Below, in pieces: positions 2,183 through 39,798 of a stretch of 41,360 nucleotides of DNA; within the stretch, counting starts at the first letter, position 1; every line of letters begins with the position of its first letter. The DNA is from Gemmatimonadota bacterium (GTDB taxonomy: Bacteria; Gemmatimonadota; Gemmatimonadetes; Gemmatimonadales; Gemmatimonadaceae). Location of the stretch: assembly GCA_028287225.1 (NCBI GenBank), contig JAQBPZ010000111.1, positions 1-41,360 of the forward strand. Direction: 5' to 3'. The translations under genes and the position numbers were made by a program. The notes below the pieces were generated by a model, which had not been told where the DNA came from, did not search any database, and saw only the letters and a program-made list of their open reading frames with translations.

Positions 2183-2184
2183 GA

Positions 2185-2223
2185 GCTGACGGGCTGACGG
2201 CCGGTGGCCGTCAGCCCGTCAGC
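2185..2223. terminator. Bidirectional hairpin between convergent genes
   Basis: GCTGACGGGCTGACGGCC (2185-2202) is perfectly complementary to GGCCGTCAGCCCGTCAGC (2206-2223). No clear U tract. Confidence 0.6.
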
Positions 2224-2234
2224 GGGCGCGCGAC

Positions 2235-3112: not shown

Positions 3113-3678
3113 CAGGCGTACTTCTCCTCCAGCAGTGCCTGCAGCGCCTCGCGTGCGCGATGCACGCGCATCTTCAGCGCGCCGACGGTGGTGCCGAGCA
3201 GGTCCGCCATCTCCTCGTACGACCGGCCCTCCACGTGCTTCATCACGAACGCCTCGCGCAGCGACGCGGGCAGCGATGCGAGCGCCACGTCGAGGTCGCT
3301 CCGCAGCTCCGTCCGGTCCAGCTCCTCGTCCGGCGTCGCGAAGCCGGACGGCTGGTCGTCCTCCTCGTAGCTGAGGTGCGAGCGGCGGATGTTCTTCAGC
3401 CAGTCCTTGCAGCCGTTCGCCACGATCCTGAACACCCAGGCATCGAAGCGGCCGCGCACCTCCGCGAGGTGCTGGTAGGCCTTGATGAACGACAGCTGCA
3501 GGATGTCTTCCGCGACATCCGGGCTTCCGGTCATGCACAGCGCGTGTCGATAGAGTGGATCACTGTAGCGAGTGATCAGCACGGTAAACTCATCGCGGCT
3601 GCCCGCGAGCACGCGCTGGATGATGCGCTGATCAGAGTCGTCCTGATCAACAAGCAGTTCTGGCTCCGAGGTCCTCAC
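3112..3678 (-). CDS. ECF-type RNA polymerase sigma-70 family factor
   Basis: Region 2 (DQRIIQRVLAGSRDEFTVLITRYSDPLYRHA, FDAWVFRIVANGCKDWLK) and region 4 (LREAFVMKHVEGRSYEEMADLLGTTVGALKMRVHRAREAL) are present. Start is set at GTG 3676-3678; an upstream ATG at 3762 is the alternative. Confidence 0.9.
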   Translation of the reverse strand: MRTSEPELLVDQDDSDQRIIQRVLAGSRDEFTVLITRYSDPLYRHALCMTGSPDVAEDILQLSFIKAYQHLAEVRGRFDAWVFRIVANGCKDWLKNIRRSHLSYEEDDQPSGFATPDEELDRTELRSDLDVALASLPASLREAFVMKHVEGRSYEEMADLLGTTVGALKMRVHRAREALQALLEEKYA

Positions 3679-5100: not shown

Positions 5101-6003
5101 ATGGTGGACAAGGATCAGGAGATCGAGGACGCGCCGGCAGCTGCCGCCGCTCCCGCGCCTCGTCGGGGACCCGGGCATCGTGGTGCCGACATGCGCGACA
5201 CCGTGGCCGAGATGGCCGAACGGGCGCAGCTGATCAGCCAGGAGGCCGGCAGCAAGGTGTCCGCGGCCATGAAGGACGTGATCAGCGCCGCCGCCGGCCT
5301 CTCCGGCTTCGCCATCGAGAGCGCCCGCGACCTCGTGCAGTACATGGTGCGGCGCGGCCAGATGACGCAGGAAGAGGCGGACAAGCTGCTCCGCGAGGCC
5401 GAGGCCGCTCACGAGCGGAAGCCCGCGAGCGAGAAGGAGCGCCCGACCTTCTCCAAGGTGGCCGCCGAGAAGGCCGCGGCCGACAAGATCGCCCGCGACG
5501 CCGCCAACGCGGCCGCGGCGCTCCTCGCCCCGCCCCAGCGTCCTGGCGCGTTCTCGCTGCGTCCGGCAGCCCCCAAGCCCCCTGCGCCGGCCCCAGCGGC
5601 CTCGTCCGCTCCGGCCCCTGCGCGTGCGGCGGATGCCGCTCCGGCGGCCCGCTCTGCGCCCGCCGCGAAGGCCGCGCCCGCCAAGACGGCACCCGCGGCC
5701 AAGGCAGCCCCCGCCAAGGCCGCGGCGAAGGCGCCCGCCAAGTCGGCGGCCAAGGCTCCTGCAAAGGCTCCGGCCAAGGCTCCCGCGAAGTCATCGGCGA
5801 AGGCGCCCACCAAGTCCGCCGCCAAGACACCCGCGAAGTCCGCCGCCAAGGCACCTGCCAAGGGTGCGGCCTCGCGGCCCGCCAAGTCGGCCGCCAAGGC
5901 CGGCGCCAAGTCGAGCGCGGGCAAGTCGGGCGCCGGCAAGACGAGCGGCGGCAAGTCGGCCGGCAAGGGCGCCGCGAAGTCTCCGGCAAAGAAGAAGAAG
6001 TAG
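5101..6003 (+). CDS. Phasin-like N-terminal domain fused to a histone-H1-like Ala/Lys/Pro repeat tail (PhaF/AlgP-like)
   Basis: N-terminal segment (ARDLVQYMVRRGQMTQEEADKLLREAE) resembles the PHA-granule phasin domain. The C-terminal ~170 aa are AKAPAKSAAK-type repeats ending in KKKK. Confidence 0.7.
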   Translation: MVDKDQEIEDAPAAAAAPAPRRGPGHRGADMRDTVAEMAERAQLISQEAGSKVSAAMKDVISAAAGLSGFAIESARDLVQYMVRRGQMTQEEADKLLREAEAAHERKPASEKERPTFSKVAAEKAAADKIARDAANAAAALLAPPQRPGAFSLRPAAPKPPAPAPAASSAPAPARAADAAPAARSAPAAKAAPAKTAPAAKAAPAKAAAKAPAKSAAKAPAKAPAKAPAKSSAKAPTKSAAKTPAKSAAKAPAKGAASRPAKSAAKAGAKSSAGKSGAGKTSGGKSAGKGAAKSPAKKKK

Positions 6004-10272: not shown

Positions 10273-10442
10273 GGGGACGCAGGACGGTCGGACGCTTTTC
10301 GGTTTACGGTTTGTCGGTTTGTCGGTTTATGGCGTGCCTCGGGACGCATTGGCTGACCGGGGCTGGCCGTAAACCGACAAACCGTAAACCGACAAACCGC
10401 AACCGCCAGACGGTCCTGTGCGGTCCTACCGTCCTACCGTTC
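10273..10442. repeat. Nested palindromic intergenic element with CGGTTT(A/G) repeat arms
   Basis: Left arm 10300-10330 (CGGTTTACGGTTTGTCGGTTTGTCGGTTTAT) is complementary to right arm 10367-10404, with at least 21 bp perfect. Outer arms (GCAGGACGGTCGGACG vs GGTCCTACCGTCCTACCGT) are also complementary. Core GGCGTGCCTCGGGACGC is at 10331-10347. Confidence 0.8.
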
Positions 10443-10496: not shown

Positions 10497-11627
10497 ATGC
10501 CCATCCCCCGCCGCCTCGCTGCCCTCGCCGCCCTCGCGCTCGTCGCCGCCTGCGCCCCGGGGACGGCGCCAGCCCCGACGCCGTCGCCGATGCCCGACGC
10601 GCGAACGCCGACGAACCCGAACGCGGGGCCCACGCCGCTCGTGAACACCACGTGGCCCGTCCGGTCGCGCGAGCACGTCGACCTCTGGCTGCACAGCTAC
10701 GCCCTGCTGACGCGCGACACCACGCTGGTCCCCTACTTCGATCGCGGCTACCGCGAGCGCATGCTCACGGCGCGGCGCGAGCGGTCCGCCACCTCGCTGC
10801 TCGACACCAACCGCGACCGGCTCCTCCAGCGCATCGCCGTGAACCCTGCGCTGGCGACGAACGGCCAGTTCCTCCCCCTCTACTTCGATTCGTGGGAGCG
10901 GATGCGACAGGCCATCGACCTCACGATCCGCGCGAACGGCAACCCGAACGCCTCCAATGACCCGGAGACGCGCACCTACATCGCGATCATCGCCAGCGCC
11001 TTTCCCTCGGCCCCCGATCGCGAATGGCTGCGCACCTTCTCGGAGAGCGCCGACGACGAGAGCCGGCGCTTCTATCACGCATGGTGGACGGGCGCCGGTG
11101 CGGCGCGCGGACGCGCGGTGCAGCACGTGGACTCGCTCTGGCAGCGGCAGTGGCGGCCCGCGCTCCAGCGCTTCCTGAACAACACCCAGCAGCAGAACGG
11201 CGAGCTCTATCTGTCCGCGCCACTCGGCGGCGAGGGGCGCACCGTGCATTTCGGCAAGCAGCAGAACGCGGTCGCGGTGCCGCTGCCGGAGTCGTTCGCC
11301 CAGAGCGACGCCGTGCTGTACGTGATGGCGCACGAGATCGCTGGCACCCTGGCCAACGCCGCGATCGAGGACAACACCACGCCCGCCGATCGCCGAGCGG
11401 GCGTGACGTCCCGCTTCGAGCAGTCGGCCGCCGTGCGGGCCGGCGCACTGCTGCTGGACCGCGTGCTGCCATCGGCCGTGCCGGGCTACATGCGCTACTA
11501 CCTCCAGCAGGCGGGCCGCACCGCGCCGAACGAGCCGCGCACCGCGTTCAACACCGCCTTCGCCCTGCCCGACGCCGTGCGCGACGCGCTCGCCCGGCAG
11601 ATGGACGTGATCCTCGGCGGGATCTGA
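10497..11627 (+). CDS. Hypothetical lipoprotein (376 aa)
   Basis: ATG 10497. Signal peptide plus lipobox (LALVAAC). No family recognised. Confidence 0.75.
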   Translation: MPIPRRLAALAALALVAACAPGTAPAPTPSPMPDARTPTNPNAGPTPLVNTTWPVRSREHVDLWLHSYALLTRDTTLVPYFDRGYRERMLTARRERSATSLLDTNRDRLLQRIAVNPALATNGQFLPLYFDSWERMRQAIDLTIRANGNPNASNDPETRTYIAIIASAFPSAPDREWLRTFSESADDESRRFYHAWWTGAGAARGRAVQHVDSLWQRQWRPALQRFLNNTQQQNGELYLSAPLGGEGRTVHFGKQQNAVAVPLPESFAQSDAVLYVMAHEIAGTLANAAIEDNTTPADRRAGVTSRFEQSAAVRAGALLLDRVLPSAVPGYMRYYLQQAGRTAPNEPRTAFNTAFALPDAVRDALARQMDVILGGI

Positions 11628-11636
11628 AACAACAAA

Positions 11637-11844
11637 GCGAGTAACGAGTAACGAGTAGGTCGAGAGGCGTCCCGGACGGTGGTGTCACCCTGCAGCCGCA
11701 GGCTGTCGGGGCATACTCTCCCGTGATGGGGACTGGCCCTGGGCACGGGACGGAATGCCCCGACACTCGCGATGCTCGCGCGGGGTGACATCCGCCCGGG
11801 ACGCCACGCTGCAGCTACTTACTCGTTACTCGTTCCTCGTTATT
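11637..11844. repeat. Rod-like nested palindrome with CGAGTAA heptad arms (same family as 37387-37588)
   Basis: Arms 11637-11658 / 11815-11844. GGCGTCCCGG 11666-11675 pairs with CCGGGACGCC 11796-11805. GTCACCC 11684-11690 pairs with GGGTGAC 11783-11789. GTCGGGGCAT 11705-11714 pairs with ATGCCCCGAC 11755-11764. Confidence 0.85.
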
Positions 11845-11853
11845 CTTCACCCC

Positions 11854-12654
11854 ATGCCGGATTCCAACCTCCCCCAGCGCATCGACCGCGCGGCCGTCGA
11901 CCGCGTGCTGGCGCGCGCGCTGGAGCTGCAGGCGTCGGCGTCGGGAGAGCCGCAGGCGGAGCAGCTCACGGAGGCGCAGCTGCTCGAGCTCGCGAAGGAG
12001 GTGGGGCTCGATCCGGTGAACCTCCGGCAGGCGCTCGCCGAGGAGCGTACCCGCGTGACCGTGCCGGAGGAGCGCGGCGTGCTCGCGGCCATGTACGGAC
12101 CCGCGTACGTCAGCGCGCAGCGCACCGTCCCCGGCACCCCGCAGCAGGTGCTCAAGGCGCTCGACGACTGGATGCAGCGGCAGGAAGGGCTCTGCGCGCA
12201 GCGCTACTTCAGCACCGAGCGCGTGGTGTGGGAGCCGCAGCAGGGCGTCGTGGGGCTCGTGCGTCGCGCCGTGAGCGGCCGCGCGCACTCGCTCGCGCGC
12301 GCCTCCGACGTCGCGGCCACCGCCATCGCGGTCGACGCCAGCCGCGTGCTCGTGCGCCTCGACGCCCGGCTCCTCGGCTATCGGGCCCTGATGGCGCAGC
12401 AGAACGCCATGCTCACCGGCGCCAGCCTGGTGGGTGGCGGCATCCTCGCCGTCCTCGCCTTCCCGGTCTTCGCGATCGCCGCGCCCGTCGCGGTCATCGC
12501 CCCCGCCGCCTGGGCCACCGCACGCGGCTCCCACCGCCGCACCGTCGACCGCGCCCAGATCGCCCTGGAACAGGTGCTGGACCGCCTCGAGCGCGGTGAA
12601 GCCGGACGGCCGCCAACCTTGCTGAGCATGCTGGCCGCGGCCGTACGACGATAG
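11854..12654 (+). CDS. Hypothetical membrane protein (266 aa)
   Basis: ATG 11854. Hydrophobic stretch GASLVGGGILAVLAFPVFAIAAPVAVIAPAAWA. No family recognised. Confidence 0.7.
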   Translation: MPDSNLPQRIDRAAVDRVLARALELQASASGEPQAEQLTEAQLLELAKEVGLDPVNLRQALAEERTRVTVPEERGVLAAMYGPAYVSAQRTVPGTPQQVLKALDDWMQRQEGLCAQRYFSTERVVWEPQQGVVGLVRRAVSGRAHSLARASDVAATAIAVDASRVLVRLDARLLGYRALMAQQNAMLTGASLVGGGILAVLAFPVFAIAAPVAVIAPAAWATARGSHRRTVDRAQIALEQVLDRLERGEAGRPPTLLSMLAAAVRR

Positions 12655-12655
12655 C

Positions 12656-12880
12656 GGGCGCTCGCGTTGCTCGCTTGGCGGGCGGGTCGCGTGGAACGCG
12701 ACCCTTGGCGGGCGGCTGCCCCTGTCGCCTTCGGCGACGGCGGGGCTATGCCTTGGCGGGCGGGCGGCTACGCCGCCCTTGCCGGTACTGCCGAGGGGTT
12801 TCCGCCACGCGAGCAGCGCGAGCGCCCGCCAAGCCATAGACCGAGCGCAGCGACGGTCACGCGCCCGCCAAGGCGGCGCC
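12656..12880. repeat. Composite palindromic element built on the 12-mer CTTGGCGGGCGG
   Basis: Direct copies at 12674-12685, 12704-12715 and 12752-12763. Inverted copies (CGCCCGCCAAG) at 12823-12833 and 12862-12872. 12656-12674 is complementary to 12809-12827 (18/19). Internal hairpin GGGTCGCG-TGGAA-CGCGACCC at 12684-12704. Confidence 0.75.
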
Positions 12881-15808: not shown

Positions 15809-15859
15809 CTTTCCCGCCGCGCCACGCCCCTCCTCGTTCCTCGTGCCTCGCTCCGTGCA

Positions 15860-28387: not shown

Positions 28388-28501
28388 GGCCCCACCTCCT
28401 CCTGCGGTCGCCCTACTGATGCATCATCCCCGTGGGAGTGTCAAGCAGGCCCAAGGAAACGGGTGGTCCCAGGACTGCGTTTGCGTGATCCCTCAGTCGA
28501 G

Positions 28502-28700
28502 GGGGGAGACCGCATTTGACGGATGCCACGGATCAGAACGGATAACGGCCGCTCTATCAGCCCCGGCGAACCGACCCCGGATCTGGAGCCTCCGGAAATC
28601 ACGGAGGTGTTCGTGGGCGTGGCGCTGTACCCATCCACGACGAGGCCAGCCGAGCGATAATCCGTTTCACCCGTGGCATCCGTCAAATGTTGTCTCCCCC
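28502..28700. repeat. 199-bp structured element bounded by 30-bp inverted repeats
   Basis: GGGGGAGACCGCATTTGACGGATGCCACGG (28502-28531) matches the reverse complement of 28671-28700 at 28/30. Internal hairpin CCTCCG/CGGAGG at 28589-28607. Confidence 0.8.
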
Positions 28701-28731
28701 TTCCAGTGAGGGGCCGGCCCTGGCGATACAG

Positions 28732-28770
28732 GAATGGCCAGGCGCCGGACGAGTCCGGGCCTGGCCATTC
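28732..28770 (-). terminator. Long hairpin downstream of the 181-aa gene
   Basis: GAATGGCCAGGC (28732-28743) pairs with GCCTGGCCATTC (28759-28770), and inner CCGGAC pairs with GTCCGG. No U tract. Confidence 0.45.
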
Positions 28771-36025: not shown

Positions 36026-36091
36026 AAGAGCGGCGTGCGGGCAGCACAGTCTGGCCGGCGAGTGTCATCACGCACCACGACAGAGGCGGCA

Positions 36092-37381
36092 ATGGACAGG
36101 CGCGTATTCATGAAGTCCGGCGCGATGGCGCTGGTGACGATGGGGCTCAGCCCGAGCTTCCTGCGGCGCACCGCGTTCGGCGCCGAGCTGCTCCAGGGCG
36201 CGGGCACGCTCGGCGCGGCGCGTGGCAAGACGCTCATCTGCCTGTTCCAGCGCGGCGCGGCGGACGCGCTCAACGTGGTGGTGCCGCATGGCGAGGCGGC
36301 GTACTACCGGCTGCGTCCCAACATCGCGATCGGCCGGCCCGAAGTCGCGGGCCAGGGCGCCATCGACCTGGACGGGTTCTTCGGGCTGCATCCGGCCCTC
36401 GCGCCGATGAAGCCGTTGTGGGACCGCGGACTGCTCGCGCCGATCCACGCGGTGGGCAGCCCGAGCAGCACGCGCTCGCACTTCGATGCGCAGGACTACA
36501 TGGAGACCGGCACGCCCGATCAGAAGGGCACGCACGACGGCTGGCTCAATCGCTACCTCGCGCTGCAGGGCACCTGCGAAGCCGGCTGCGCGCACGACAC
36601 GGCCCACGCGAAGGACTCGCCGTTCCGCGCCGTCGCGATGACCCAGCAGACGCCGCGCATCCTGGAGGGGCCGGCGGCGACGATCGCCATGAACTCGCTC
36701 GACGAGTTCAGCGTGCGCGCCACCGGCCCCGCCGTGGACCGGCTGGAGGCGCTGTACCGGACCGGCTCGGCCGACGTGGTGCATGCGGCCGGCGGCGAGA
36801 TGTTCGAGGCGGTGAAGATCCTGCGCGCCGCGAACCCGGAGCGGTACCTGCCGCAGAACGGGGCGTCGTACCCCGCCAGCCAGTTCGGCCAGCGGCTGCG
36901 CCAGATCGCGCAGCTCATCAAGGCCGACGTGGGGCTCGAGGTGGCGTTCGCCGACGTCGGCGGCTGGGATACGCACGTGAACCAGGGCGGCGCCACCGGG
37001 CAGCTCGCGGGACGGCTCGACGACTTCGCGCGCTCGATCGCCGCGCTCGTGGCGGACCTCGGCGACCGGATGGCCGACACCACGATCATGACGATGTCCG
37101 AGTTCGGCCGCACGGCGCGGCAGAACGGCAACGGCGGCACCGACCACGGGCATGCGAGCGCCCTCTTCGTGATCGGCGGCGACGTGAAGGGAGGGAAGGT
37201 CTACGGGCGCTGGCCGGGCCTGGAGCTCGAGCAGCTCTACGAGGGGCGCGACCTGGCACTCACGACCGACTTCCGCGCGGTGTTCTCCGAGGTCGCCGCG
37301 AAGCAGCTCGGTGCAACGCGGCTGGACGCGCTCTTCCCGGGCTTCGAGTCGCCCAGGGCGTCGTGGCTCGGGATGGTGTGA
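36092..37381 (+). CDS. DUF1501 family (sulfatase-fold) protein with a twin-arginine signal
   Basis: ATG 36092. Tat-like MDRRVFMKSGAMALV. GGWDTH and GTDHGHA motifs. Confidence 0.9.
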   Translation: MDRRVFMKSGAMALVTMGLSPSFLRRTAFGAELLQGAGTLGAARGKTLICLFQRGAADALNVVVPHGEAAYYRLRPNIAIGRPEVAGQGAIDLDGFFGLHPALAPMKPLWDRGLLAPIHAVGSPSSTRSHFDAQDYMETGTPDQKGTHDGWLNRYLALQGTCEAGCAHDTAHAKDSPFRAVAMTQQTPRILEGPAATIAMNSLDEFSVRATGPAVDRLEALYRTGSADVVHAAGGEMFEAVKILRAANPERYLPQNGASYPASQFGQRLRQIAQLIKADVGLEVAFADVGGWDTHVNQGGATGQLAGRLDDFARSIAALVADLGDRMADTTIMTMSEFGRTARQNGNGGTDHGHASALFVIGGDVKGGKVYGRWPGLELEQLYEGRDLALTTDFRAVFSEVAAKQLGATRLDALFPGFESPRASWLGMV

Positions 37382-37386
37382 AGAAG

Positions 37387-37588
37387 AACGAGTAACGAGT
37401 AACTGAATAACGAGTGGCGTCCCGGGCGTTGGTCATCCCGTGAGCCGCAGGCGAACCGGGATCGTCTCTCCTTGCGGCCTGGCCAGTCAATCCGCAGTGA
37501 AGGACGATCCCGGTTCGCTGCGCTCACGGGATGACAGGGACGCCCCCCGGCTTACTCGTTACTCGTTATTCAGTTCTCGTTACTCGTT
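37387..37588. repeat. Rod-like nested palindrome with CGAGTAA heptad arms (same family as 11637-11844)
   Basis: Arms 37387-37415 / 37551-37588. GGCGTCCCGG 37416-37425 pairs with GGGACGCC 37537-37544. GGTCATCCCGTGAGC 37431-37445 pairs with GCTCACGGGATGAC 37522-37535. GCGAACCGGGATCGTC 37451-37466 pairs with GACGATCCCGGTTCGC 37503-37518. Confidence 0.85.
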
Positions 37589-37593
37589 GCCGT

Positions 37594-39798
37594 TCAGAAG
37601 TGGAAGATCTTCCGGAGCACCTTCCCGATGCCGTCGACGCCCTTCTGCACGGGGTCGGGAAGGGGGACGCCGCCCGGCACATCCATGGGGAGGGTGTCGT
37701 CCACCGGCGCAGGCTCGGTGTGCACGTTGCAGACTTCGCGCGGCTCCGTGCCCGGCTTGAAGTACTGCCGCTGCCGCACCGGGCACCATTCGCCGGCGAG
37801 CATGCCCGTTTCCGGGTCCACGACGGCCATCGTCATGCCCGCAGGGGGCTGCCAGGCCTGCGCGGACGACGCCGGCTCCTTCCATCCATTGAGGTAGAAC
37901 TCGGCCCACGCCGGCGCGGCGAGGTGGCCGCCGGTTGCGCCCGGCGCGATCGGCCGCGGGTTGTCGTAGCCGAACCACACGCCGGCGACGAGGGTGGGCG
38001 AATAGCCCACGAACCACACGTCGGCCGCGTTGTTCGTGGTCCCCGTCTTTCCCGCCACCTGGCCCTTCACCCCCGCGTCGCGGAGCGTGCGTCCCGTCCC
38101 GTTGTCGACGACCCCCTTGAGCATCTGCGTGATCTGGTACGCGTCACGCTGGTCCATGACCGTGTCGGCGGGGGCGATCTCGGCGCTCCACAGCACCGTG
38201 CCGTCGGCGGCCTCGATGCGCCGCACCAGGCGCGGGTGCACGCGCAGCCCGCCGTTGGCGAACGGCGCATAGGCGGCGACGAGCTCCAGCGGCGTCACCT
38301 CCACGGCGCCGAGCGCCATCGACGGATAGCTGGGCAGCGGGCTCGAGATGCCGTTGCGGCGCGCGGCGTCGATCACGCGCGGGATGCCGACCGTCTGGCT
38401 GACCCGCACCGCTGCGGCGTTCGAGGAGATGGCAAGCGCCTTCGTCAGCGTGATGGTGCCTTCGTACTCATCGTAGTTGCCTGGACGCCAGACCGTCCGC
38501 CCCTGCTGGATCTCCACCGGCTCGTCGTCCACCAGCGTCATCGGGGTCATGCCGGCCCGCATCGCCGCCGCATACACGAACGGCTTGAACGCCGACCCCG
38601 GCTGGCGCCGCGCGTTGAAGGCGCGGTTGAAGCCACGCTTGCTGCGTCGCCCGCCCACGAGTGCGCGGATGTCGCCGCTCACCGGGTCCAGCGCGACGAG
38701 CGCGCCCTGCGCCGCTTCGGGCACGCGGTTCCCCGCCGCCTGCGTGGAGCGCGTCACGAGCGTCGTCCCCCGCAGCACGGCGCGGTCGGCGGCGCGCTGG
38801 GCGCCAAGGTCGAGCGTGGTGTAGACCGTGACGTCACCCTCCTTGAGGGCATCGGGGCGCAGCGAGTCGATGAGCGCGCGCACCGCGTCGAGGGCCAGCG
38901 GCTCGTCCTTCACGTCCGGGCGCCATTCGTCCTCGGCGATGCGGAGCGGCACCCGCTGCGTCGCCGCCGCCTGCTGCGGCGTGAGGTAGCCCGCGTCCGC
39001 CATCAGCGCGAGCACGAGGTTGCGGCGCTTGAGGCCGCGCTCGTAGTGGTCGCGCGGCGTGTAGGCGCTCGGGCCCTTGGGCAGCGCGGCAAGCATCGCT
39101 CCCTCGCTCAGCGTGAGCTGCGAGACGTTCTTGCCGAACAGGTCGCGGCTCGCCGCCTCTACCCCGTTCATGCCGTTGCCGAGATAGATGATGTTGAGGT
39201 AGAGCTCGAGGATCTGGTCCTTGCTGAGCTCGCCCTCGATGAGGCGCGTGAGCCGCAGCTCGATCAGCTTGCGCCGCAGCGTGCGCCCGTAGCGCTTGTT
39301 CACGAGGAAGGAGTTGCGCGCCACCTGCATGGTGATCGTGCTGAAGCCCTCGCGCACGCCGAGGTGGCGGACGTTGGAGAGCGAGGCGCGGAACACCCCC
39401 TTCCAGTCGAGCCCGTTGTGCTGGTAGAAGCGGCGGTCTTCCGTGGCGAGGAACGCGTTGCGGACGTGCTCGGGGATGGACGAGATGGGCACGTTGACGC
39501 GCCGCACCAGGGCGATGCGGCCGAGGAAGCGGTCGTTGCGGTCCACGATGCGTCCCCCCTCGCCGGGCCGGAACGCGCGAATCTCCGCGCGCGAGGGGCA
39601 CCCCTCGAACCCGCACGTCCCCAGCCAGGCGTCGAACAGCACGATGCCGATGCAGGCCAGCCCGAGCGCAGCCAGCGAGCGCCAGCGTTTCCGCATCCAG
39701 ACACGTGCGGGGACGGGCTCGGCCGGCTCGCGGAGCCGCTGGCGAAGAAGGTCGAGACGCTCGGAGAGGCGCAGGAGACGAGGGGGCTGAAGTGGCAT
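37594..39798 (-). CDS. mrcA: Penicillin-binding protein 1A (bifunctional transglycosylase/transpeptidase)
   Basis: GT51 motifs (EDRRFYQHNGLD, GFSTITMQVARN, RKLIE), transpeptidase motif (RQPGSAFKPFVY) and KTGTTN. Confidence 0.95.
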   Translation of the reverse strand: MPLQPPRLLRLSERLDLLRQRLREPAEPVPARVWMRKRWRSLAALGLACIGIVLFDAWLGTCGFEGCPSRAEIRAFRPGEGGRIVDRNDRFLGRIALVRRVNVPISSIPEHVRNAFLATEDRRFYQHNGLDWKGVFRASLSNVRHLGVREGFSTITMQVARNSFLVNKRYGRTLRRKLIELRLTRLIEGELSKDQILELYLNIIYLGNGMNGVEAASRDLFGKNVSQLTLSEGAMLAALPKGPSAYTPRDHYERGLKRRNLVLALMADAGYLTPQQAAATQRVPLRIAEDEWRPDVKDEPLALDAVRALIDSLRPDALKEGDVTVYTTLDLGAQRAADRAVLRGTTLVTRSTQAAGNRVPEAAQGALVALDPVSGDIRALVGGRRSKRGFNRAFNARRQPGSAFKPFVYAAAMRAGMTPMTLVDDEPVEIQQGRTVWRPGNYDEYEGTITLTKALAISSNAAAVRVSQTVGIPRVIDAARRNGISSPLPSYPSMALGAVEVTPLELVAAYAPFANGGLRVHPRLVRRIEAADGTVLWSAEIAPADTVMDQRDAYQITQMLKGVVDNGTGRTLRDAGVKGQVAGKTGTTNNAADVWFVGYSPTLVAGVWFGYDNPRPIAPGATGGHLAAPAWAEFYLNGWKEPASSAQAWQPPAGMTMAVVDPETGMLAGEWCPVRQRQYFKPGTEPREVCNVHTEPAPVDDTLPMDVPGGVPLPDPVQKGVDGIGKVLRKIFHF

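Follow-up and report, generated by a model that had tools for sequence, protein, structure and literature searches.

Bacterial MITEs, of which Correia, ERIC, Nezha and the Tn3-derived TIMEs are examples, are elements of less than 300 nt that contain no ORF, carry terminal inverted repeats and are present or absent between related genomes. REPINs are REP doublets that form hairpins and are mobilised by RAYT transposases, and they are reportedly the subject of work by Bertels and Rainey from 2011. They are non-coding and extragenic, and consist of two inverted arms in a long hairpin at gene ends that is absent from relatives and whose arms change in concert, with pairing kept. Genomes contain them in tens to hundreds of copies, together with a cognate RAYT gene (a Y1 transposase) that the repeats flank.

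Heptameric repeats at gene boundaries have been described in another form. The intergenic TAACTGA arrays are direct repeats that lie mostly just upstream of start codons and have no predicted structure (MacGregor 2015, PMC4679880), and among long simple repeats, heptamers are reported to be the most frequent in many bacteria (Mrazek 2007, as cited in PMC4679880). Replication template switching, in turn, is documented to generate and repair perfectly paired stems, to change several bases in a compensatory manner and to invert loops, and it requires no selection on RNA (Monttinen and Loytynoja 2022, PMC8794818).

The window analysed here, a stretch of 41,360 nt, contains two long palindromes, of which the second (copy 2, positions 37382-37593) is the feature under study. 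The host is a Gemmatimonadaceae bacterium; the best named homologs of PBP1A and gene A, which adjoin copy 2 and copy 1, respectively, are found in Gemmatimonadaceae MAGs. We consider copy 2 to be probably, although not securely, a member of a non-coding, nested-palindrome insertion family of the Gemmatimonadaceae that is MITE/REPIN-like and owes its symmetry to DNA-level processes. A full-text literature search found no paper on repetitive, palindromic or intergenic sequences of Gemmatimonas.

The two copies in the 41 kb of the window share with MITEs their small size (212 and 215 nt), the terminal inverted repeats, which are present as mutually inverted heptad arms, and the presence or absence at orthologous sites. 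Judged from orthologous gene calls, they lie wholly between genes, although the mechanical ORF list does contain frames crossing the element. Unlike in MITEs, the palindrome takes in the whole element and not the termini only, no target-site duplication is readable, and no parent IS with matching ends accompanies it: no autonomous IS or transposase with the same ends was found in the window or among the pattern-scan loci, and a Pfam search of 20 window proteins returned no transposase, RAYT, reverse transcriptase or integrase. With REPINs, the copies have in common two inverted units that form one hairpin and evolve as a unit. By contrast, heptad microsatellites form their arms in place of REP units (imperfect palindromes of 20-40 nt with a GTAG head), nested inner palindromes are present in a stem of roughly 85 bp, and the window holds no RAYT gene. 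A REP unit with a conserved 5' GTAG was not found in arms that consist of tandem heptads plus GGCGTCCCGG, where GTAG is sporadic. The sequence-only reading had named a match to a known MITE/REP family with an identified transposase as one outcome that would overturn its interpretation; the likeness is one in kind, and no transposase was identified.

Two other identities were dropped. One arm resembles what we take to be a Tn3-type inverted repeat (GGGG...ACGAGTAAG, 36 nt); the other three of the four ends do not fit, and a 5-bp duplication is lacking. A retron msr/msd was rejected because no reverse transcriptase lies nearby. As in the TAACTGA arrays (PMC4679880) and the cyanobacterial STRR heptamers, tandem AT-rich heptamers stand at gene boundaries and put stops into three frames in one orientation; copy 2 even has a TAACTGA unit inside its arm (37400-37406). 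The TAACTGA arrays are direct and unstructured, whereas the arms described here are inverted and base-paired around a GC-rich core.

Anatomy of the two window copies

Copy 2 is a near-perfect palindrome of 212 nt that fills the gap between the convergent DUF1501 gene (36035-37381, plus strand) and PBP1A gene (37594-39798, minus strand; 700 aa as called in a conspecific contig and used to locate the orthologous junctions). The DUF1501 stop (37379-37381) lies 6 nt ahead of copy 2 and the PBP1A stop (37594-37596) 5 nt beyond it, which agrees with the distances first read from the sequence. The left arm (37378-37415, plus strand) is composed of the units GTGAAGAA, GAACGAG, TAACGAG, TAACTGAA and TAACGAG, with AACGAGT-type heptads from 37387 onwards. 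Its outermost heptad, GTGAAGAA, is degenerate and includes the TGA stop of DUF1501, whose last two codons and stop read GMV-stop here versus GVL-stop in orthologs. The right arm (37551-37588, minus strand) consists of ACTCGTT-type heptads and repeats the left arm in reverse complement.

Inside the arms, the core motif GGCGTCCCGG (37416-37425, plus strand) pairs with GGGACGCC (37537-37544). On the left, the inner stems are formed by GGTCATCCCGTGAGC and GCGAACCGGGATCGTC (37431-37466, plus strand), with GCCGCAGGC (37444-37452) at their junction, and the right halves, GACGATCCCGGTTCGC and GCTCACGGGATGAC, make up positions 37503-37544 of the same strand together with GGGACGCC. The stems pair 37431-37445 with 37522-37535 and 37451-37466 with 37503-37518. 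They enclose the apex, a non-palindromic spacer of 36 nt (37467-37502, plus strand) containing TCTCC (37467-37471) and CTGGCC (37479-37484). Family members would be built, from the outside inwards, of AT-rich heptad microsatellite arms (TAACGAG and its transition variants), a conserved GGCGTCCCGRG module, and variable nested stems round a non-palindromic apex.

Copy 1 (11636-11850) is a homologous palindromic element of 215 nt with the same plan. It is located between co-directional genes, beginning 8 nt past the stop of gene A (11625-11627) and ending, as a hairpin, 3 nt ahead of the ATG of gene B (at 11854), and short T-rich runs adjoin it on both sides. The left heptad arm (11636-11658, plus strand) reads AGCGAGT AACGAGT AACGAGT AG. 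The 40-nt apex (11715-11754) lies between GTCGGGGCAT (11705-11714) and ATGCCCCGAC (11755-11764). The right heptad arm (11818-11850, minus strand) has as its outermost end GTGAAGAATAACGAG in reverse complement (11836-11850). Both palindromes, with all of the motifs quoted for them by the sequence-only reading, were recovered at their positions.

Judged by their alignment, the two copies, 26 kb apart, are homologous. With the heptads removed, the cores align with a score of 72 (shuffles 5 +/- 9), and the order of the core motifs is identical in both. Copy 2 carries the degenerate outermost heptad GTGAAGAA on its left arm, and copy 1 has it, in reverse complement, on its right arm. As a derived feature of both copies, it argues for common descent rather than independent local growth and shows that the two have a common origin. 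The two copies had been described as having the same orientation, and this holds for the core, which aligns better in the same orientation (72) than in reverse complement (46). It does not hold for the outer arms; those of copy 2 match the opposite arms of copy 1 best when the latter are read in reverse complement, the closest pair being its left arm and the right arm of copy 1, and the statement is therefore true of the core only.

The folds of both copies were compared with those of 200 dinucleotide shuffles. The plus strand of copy 2 folds at -143.2 kcal/mol (shuffles -74.7 +/- 4.7; z -14.6), that of copy 1 at -136.5 kcal/mol (z -10.9), and none of the 200 shuffles folds as well as either. 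As DNA, copy 2 folds at -84.1 with a z of -14.4. The stem is roughly 85 bp long. Heptad dimers with up to two mismatches gave 7 matches against an expected 0.05, all of them in copies 1 and 2. With these values, the palindromes first read from the sequence are confirmed as real.

Occupied sites, empty sites and dispersed relatives

The junction of PBP1A and DUF1501 has no palindrome in two related genomes, in which it measures 63 nt (L004, PBP1A 88% identical) and 12 nt (L007, 85%). The junction of genes A and B in the same two genomes measures 38 nt (L039) and 59 nt (L041), compared with 226 nt in the window. A motif search with the GGCGTCCCG core found no element copy at the loci of the relatives, and no comparable palindrome came up when L004, L007 and L008 were scanned for inverted repeats. 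The site of copy 2 is filled in the conspecific contig L009 (PBP1A 100% identical), which ends inside the element, and that of copy 1 in the conspecific L038 (gene A 99% identical). Both junctions are therefore polymorphic for presence at orthologous sites, filled in conspecifics and empty in two relatives, implying that the copies are lineage-specific insertions or replacements and not conserved features. On this comparison of orthologous sequences, the element is shown to have been inserted into, or to have replaced, short gene-end spacers in one lineage. Neither copy shows a direct repeat that could represent a target-site duplication; the ends of the element are poorly defined, and the empty sites are too diverged to give boundaries.

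The same junctions carry different heptad arrays in other relatives, namely (GTGAATG)x16 in L043, (GGATAAG)x2 in L044 and (GGCTCTC)x3 in L045, and part of the arm structure may therefore come from slippage in place and not from transposition. The L043 array runs to the contig end and starts next to a copy of GGGCGTGAATGGTG, which suggests that arms can grow through slippage of a terminal motif; the L044 contig also breaks at its array. At the junction of genes A and B in these closer relatives, L043 and L044 (4455-4477) have stop-containing heptads, with about two units (x2-2.3) of GGATAAG in L044. Elsewhere on L043, an element of 126 nt has an inverted repeat of 19 nt that starts with GGGCGTGAATGGTG; the features of this contig lie at 3368-3511 and 2043-2165.

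These arrays bear on an origin entirely in place and without mobility, in which heptads would expand by slippage, a fold-back or template switch would copy the arms, and ectopic gene conversion would make the copies alike. Such a course would explain the different arrays at one junction and the variation of heptad and octamer copy number between conspecific contigs; template switching makes stems in one step, and the commonness of heptamers among long simple repeats, as reported for many bacteria (Mrazek 2007, cited in PMC4679880), is in keeping with it. It is improbable in our view, because copies 26 kb apart have ordered core motifs and the derived outermost heptad in common, and because the GGCGTCCCGRGCGGCCGT core is found in unrelated contigs from other samples, which calls for dispersal and not only for local growth.

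Long copies are restricted in the collections searched to the two described above and their strain variants, and the two exact-pattern scans, each of a single pass, together gave roughly the number of matches expected by chance. The scan of the genome collection yielded three loci and no other long copy. All three were rejected as family members: L001 has the same heptad arms with a different core and 59% GC, and the heptads adjoin a direct repeat in L002 (Anaerolineae MAG) and a short terminator-like hairpin in L003 (Streptosporangiaceae MAG). In the locus on L001 (3491-3795, MAG MFD01112.bin.2.36), the arms consist of GAGTAAC heptads and GGCGTCCC is present; five small hairpins, whose loops are all TCTCCGA or the complement, make up the interior, and an upstream candidate ORF ends within the heptads. 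A scan of viral contigs gave one match, at chance level, and BLAST against plasmids returned nothing relevant.

The metagenome scan returned 28 loci, about the number expected by chance, without another long copy. Roughly nine of them are genuine short-form relatives and the remainder are coincidences in coding sequence. The short forms measure 70-90 nt and consist of GAGTRAY heptad arms, a closing stem GAGTGAGG/CCCTCACTC and an asymmetric loop GGCGTCCCGRG(CGGCCGT); GGCGTCCCGG recurs in them as the conserved asymmetric core. Those with the GGCGTCCCGRGCGGCCGT core lie in contigs of 67-74% GC that are Gemmatimonadota-like, and the flanking-gene matches of one of them (L023) are named Gemmatimonadaceae. 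Candidate flanking ORFs, taken from a stop-to-stop listing, end inside the short-form arms or within about 30 nt of them. Comparable heptad arms with different interiors are present in L001 and L020, from genomes of 59-60% GC. In sequence, the long window copies look like the short module with extra nested stems placed between GGCGTCCCGG and CTGGCC.

Several further repeats were noted in the window. The orthologous regions of L004 and L007 lack a block of about 230 nt that lies upstream of EF-G in the window (region 28455-28760). The block contains an insertion (28490-28712) with 42-nt inverted repeats (28490-28531/28671-28712, 88% complementary) and a non-palindromic interior, adjoined by a conserved leader that contains TTGACA. 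The insertion is of the classical MITE-like type, belongs to a different family, unrelated to copies 1 and 2, and shows that the lineage acquires such elements. Between convergent gene B and a gene resembling squalene/phytoene synthase, positions 12654-12829 comprise three CTTGGCGGGCGG units, each with a small hairpin after it, inside a 28-nt inverted repeat (93% complementary). A lone YCCTCGY heptad array of the right-arm type (15827-15854) stands just upstream of the thyX start and has no inverted partner. Positions 5680-5990 form a long array of 12/24-nt periodicity. The AKAAPAK-type repeats that it encodes belong to the N-terminal half of a protein that has GHMP kinase domains; the stretch is a separate upstream gene in relatives.

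Strain variation in stems and apex

Between strains, the element gains and loses heptads, inverts its apex, and undergoes rewriting of several arm bases at once that restores pairing. When copy 1 of the window is compared with that of L038, the apex, 40 nt carrying TCTCC and CTGGCC, is inverted, and the two are identical at 37/40 positions only after one of them is flipped. The left arm of L038 has one heptad fewer, its left GGCGTCCCGG is replaced by GGGGCTTCCCTGG, and the right inner arm is rewritten from ACTCGCGATGCTCGCGCG to AGCTTCGCTGCG. As a result of this rewriting, CGCAGC/GCTGCG pairs perfectly in L038, where copy 1 of the window is mismatched. The same six-pair segment is GTGAGC/GCTCAC in copy 2, so that three adjacent pairs differ on both sides. 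Turnover of the element between strains is much faster than that of the flanking genes.

The sequence-only reading had described conserved, ordered loops and stems that differ yet stay complementary. Its statement on the stems was confirmed; GTCACCC/GGGTGAC in copy 1 corresponds to GTCATCCC.../...GGGATGAC in copy 2, both are paired, and the changes affect both sides. The statement on the loops fails on L038, in which the apex with both of its motifs is inverted (37/40 after the flip), and the motif order is therefore not constrained. Together with the mismatch in arm orientation noted above, the flip implies that the orientation of the core relative to the arms is not fixed.

Rapid multi-base changes made in one step, combined with a loop flip, are the published signature of template switching. 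The hairpins described for this process (PMC8794818) are alike in their loop inversions, their multi-base one-step 'compensatory' changes and their long, near-perfect stems. They differ in that template switching is a mutational mechanism and not an element family; it accounts for the upkeep of symmetry here and not for dispersal. We propose that hairpin symmetry would be kept mainly by template switching within the element or by conversion from arm to arm, possibly with the involvement of a single-stranded hairpin as transposition intermediate. Selection on an RNA gene would not be needed for the symmetry.

These observations have to be weighed against a structured sRNA gene, that is, an RNA of about 200 nt with functional, conserved loops and stems that covary under selection. 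The conserved motif order in the window copies and their complementary stem changes are what such a gene would show. Moreover, the plus strand has slightly more G-U pairs in the folds compared (8/5/4 versus 5/2/2 on the minus strand, a weak excess) and folds 3-10 kcal/mol better, and a G-to-A variant in L009 would leave a G-U pair on the plus strand. The minus strands nevertheless fold nearly as well (copy 2 -138.1, copy 1 -127.0 kcal/mol), one conspecific strain has the apex inverted, and the element is absent in relatives. In an RNAalifold analysis limited to the three long sequences, too few for statistical power, two-sided changes were seen in 10/78 pairs and the covariation term was unfavourable (+7.2); these pairing counts are too low, since MAFFT, in aligning the three copies, misplaces the inner stems of copy 2. 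Consensus scans for sigma-70 promoters and U-tract terminators on both strands around both copies detected none. The Rfam comparison that the sequence-only reading had proposed came out negative at gathering thresholds, and at permissive E-values only generic miRNA hairpin models matched, with at most 36 bits against cut-offs of at least 90. An sRNA gene is thus a very improbable explanation. What stands of the proposed selected RNA or ssDNA structure is the homology of the copies and the paired changes in their stems; the selection itself is not supported, in view of the two junctions that are empty in relatives, the fast turnover and the folding of both strands.

Inward stops and the element at gene ends

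The arm heptads include TAA, TGA or TAG, and because seven is not a multiple of three, the stops fall in two or three of the inward frames of each arm and in none of the outward ones. All three inward frames and no outward frame are stopped in 16/22 scored arms of AACGAGT-heptad elements, and two inward frames are stopped in another 4/22. The left arm of copy 2 has stops in 3/3 inward frames and in 0 outward. This property follows in part arithmetically from any 7-nt unit with a stop, and the neighbouring heptad palindrome at 10297-10402 does not have it.

Within the MITE/REPIN-like reading, the inward stops would make the element a tolerated insertion at gene ends. We infer that copies survive there because stops in nearly all three frames of each arm confine the effect of an insertion to the truncation of a gene by a few codons, and would keep ribosomes out of the hairpin. 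As a side effect, read-through transcription is probably blocked as well by the stem of roughly 85 bp.

The position of the hairpins is open to a different explanation, namely a host-selected, cis-acting RNA hairpin that would serve as a bidirectional factor-independent terminator or insulator, or as a 3'-end mRNA stabiliser, its heptad stops keeping ribosomes off the stem. Copy 2 fills a convergent gap to within 6 and 5 nt of the stops, and copy 1 starts 8 nt past a stop and is bordered on both sides by short T-rich runs. The inward three-frame stops, the very high stability on both strands and the repeat-armed hairpins that separate other convergent genes (window 2183-2234, L008 8589-8670) accord with such a role. 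Intrinsic (Rho-independent) terminators are alike in having a GC-rich hairpin right after stops and between convergent genes. By contrast, the present element has no U-tract in the consensus scan, its stem is about ten times longer and far exceeds the needs of termination, and relatives do without the hairpin, with orthologous spacers of 12-63 nt. In addition, its sequence turns over rapidly between strains, and copy 1 ends 3 nt before the next ATG and would hinder gene B, not help it. We therefore consider selection for this role rather unlikely, whereas an insulator function at gene ends, as a secondary effect, is possible and compatible with a mobile element.

Other repeat-armed hairpins were detected by sliding 100-nt fold scans, a length too short for palindromes of 200 nt. 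A hairpin with octamer arms, (GCTGACGG)x2, lies exactly between convergent genes at window 2183-2234, as does one with tandem octamer arms GTCGACTG/GACCAGCC on L008 (8589-8670). The palindrome at 10297-10402 has arms of CGGTTTA/CGGTTTGT repeats and is followed by a GTCCTACC octamer array, the region of both in L038 being 2094-2260. The array comprises 2.2 copies in the window (10423-10440) and 4.6 copies in L038 (2224-2260), a difference that indicates slippage polymorphism between strains. Hairpins with repeat arms seem to occur generally at the gene ends of these genomes.

A broader proposal would take the heptad-armed hairpins as mobile 'gene-end punctuation' throughout the Gemmatimonadota, giving three-frame stops on both faces together with bidirectional transcription insulation, spreading as DNA, deriving their symmetry from template switching and being used by the host instead of U-tract terminators. 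We regard this extension as quite unlikely.

If the insertion family is confirmed, it would provide a natural, strain-level example of 'compensatory' stem evolution and loop inversion, which bears on the trust placed in covariation as proof of a functional RNA. It would also account for contig breaks at gene ends, as L009, L043 and L044 end inside such repeats, and would supply markers for strain typing. For the Gemmatimonadota, which are abundant soil bacteria, it would lead to the testable idea that inward three-frame stops let palindromes settle on gene termini at little cost.
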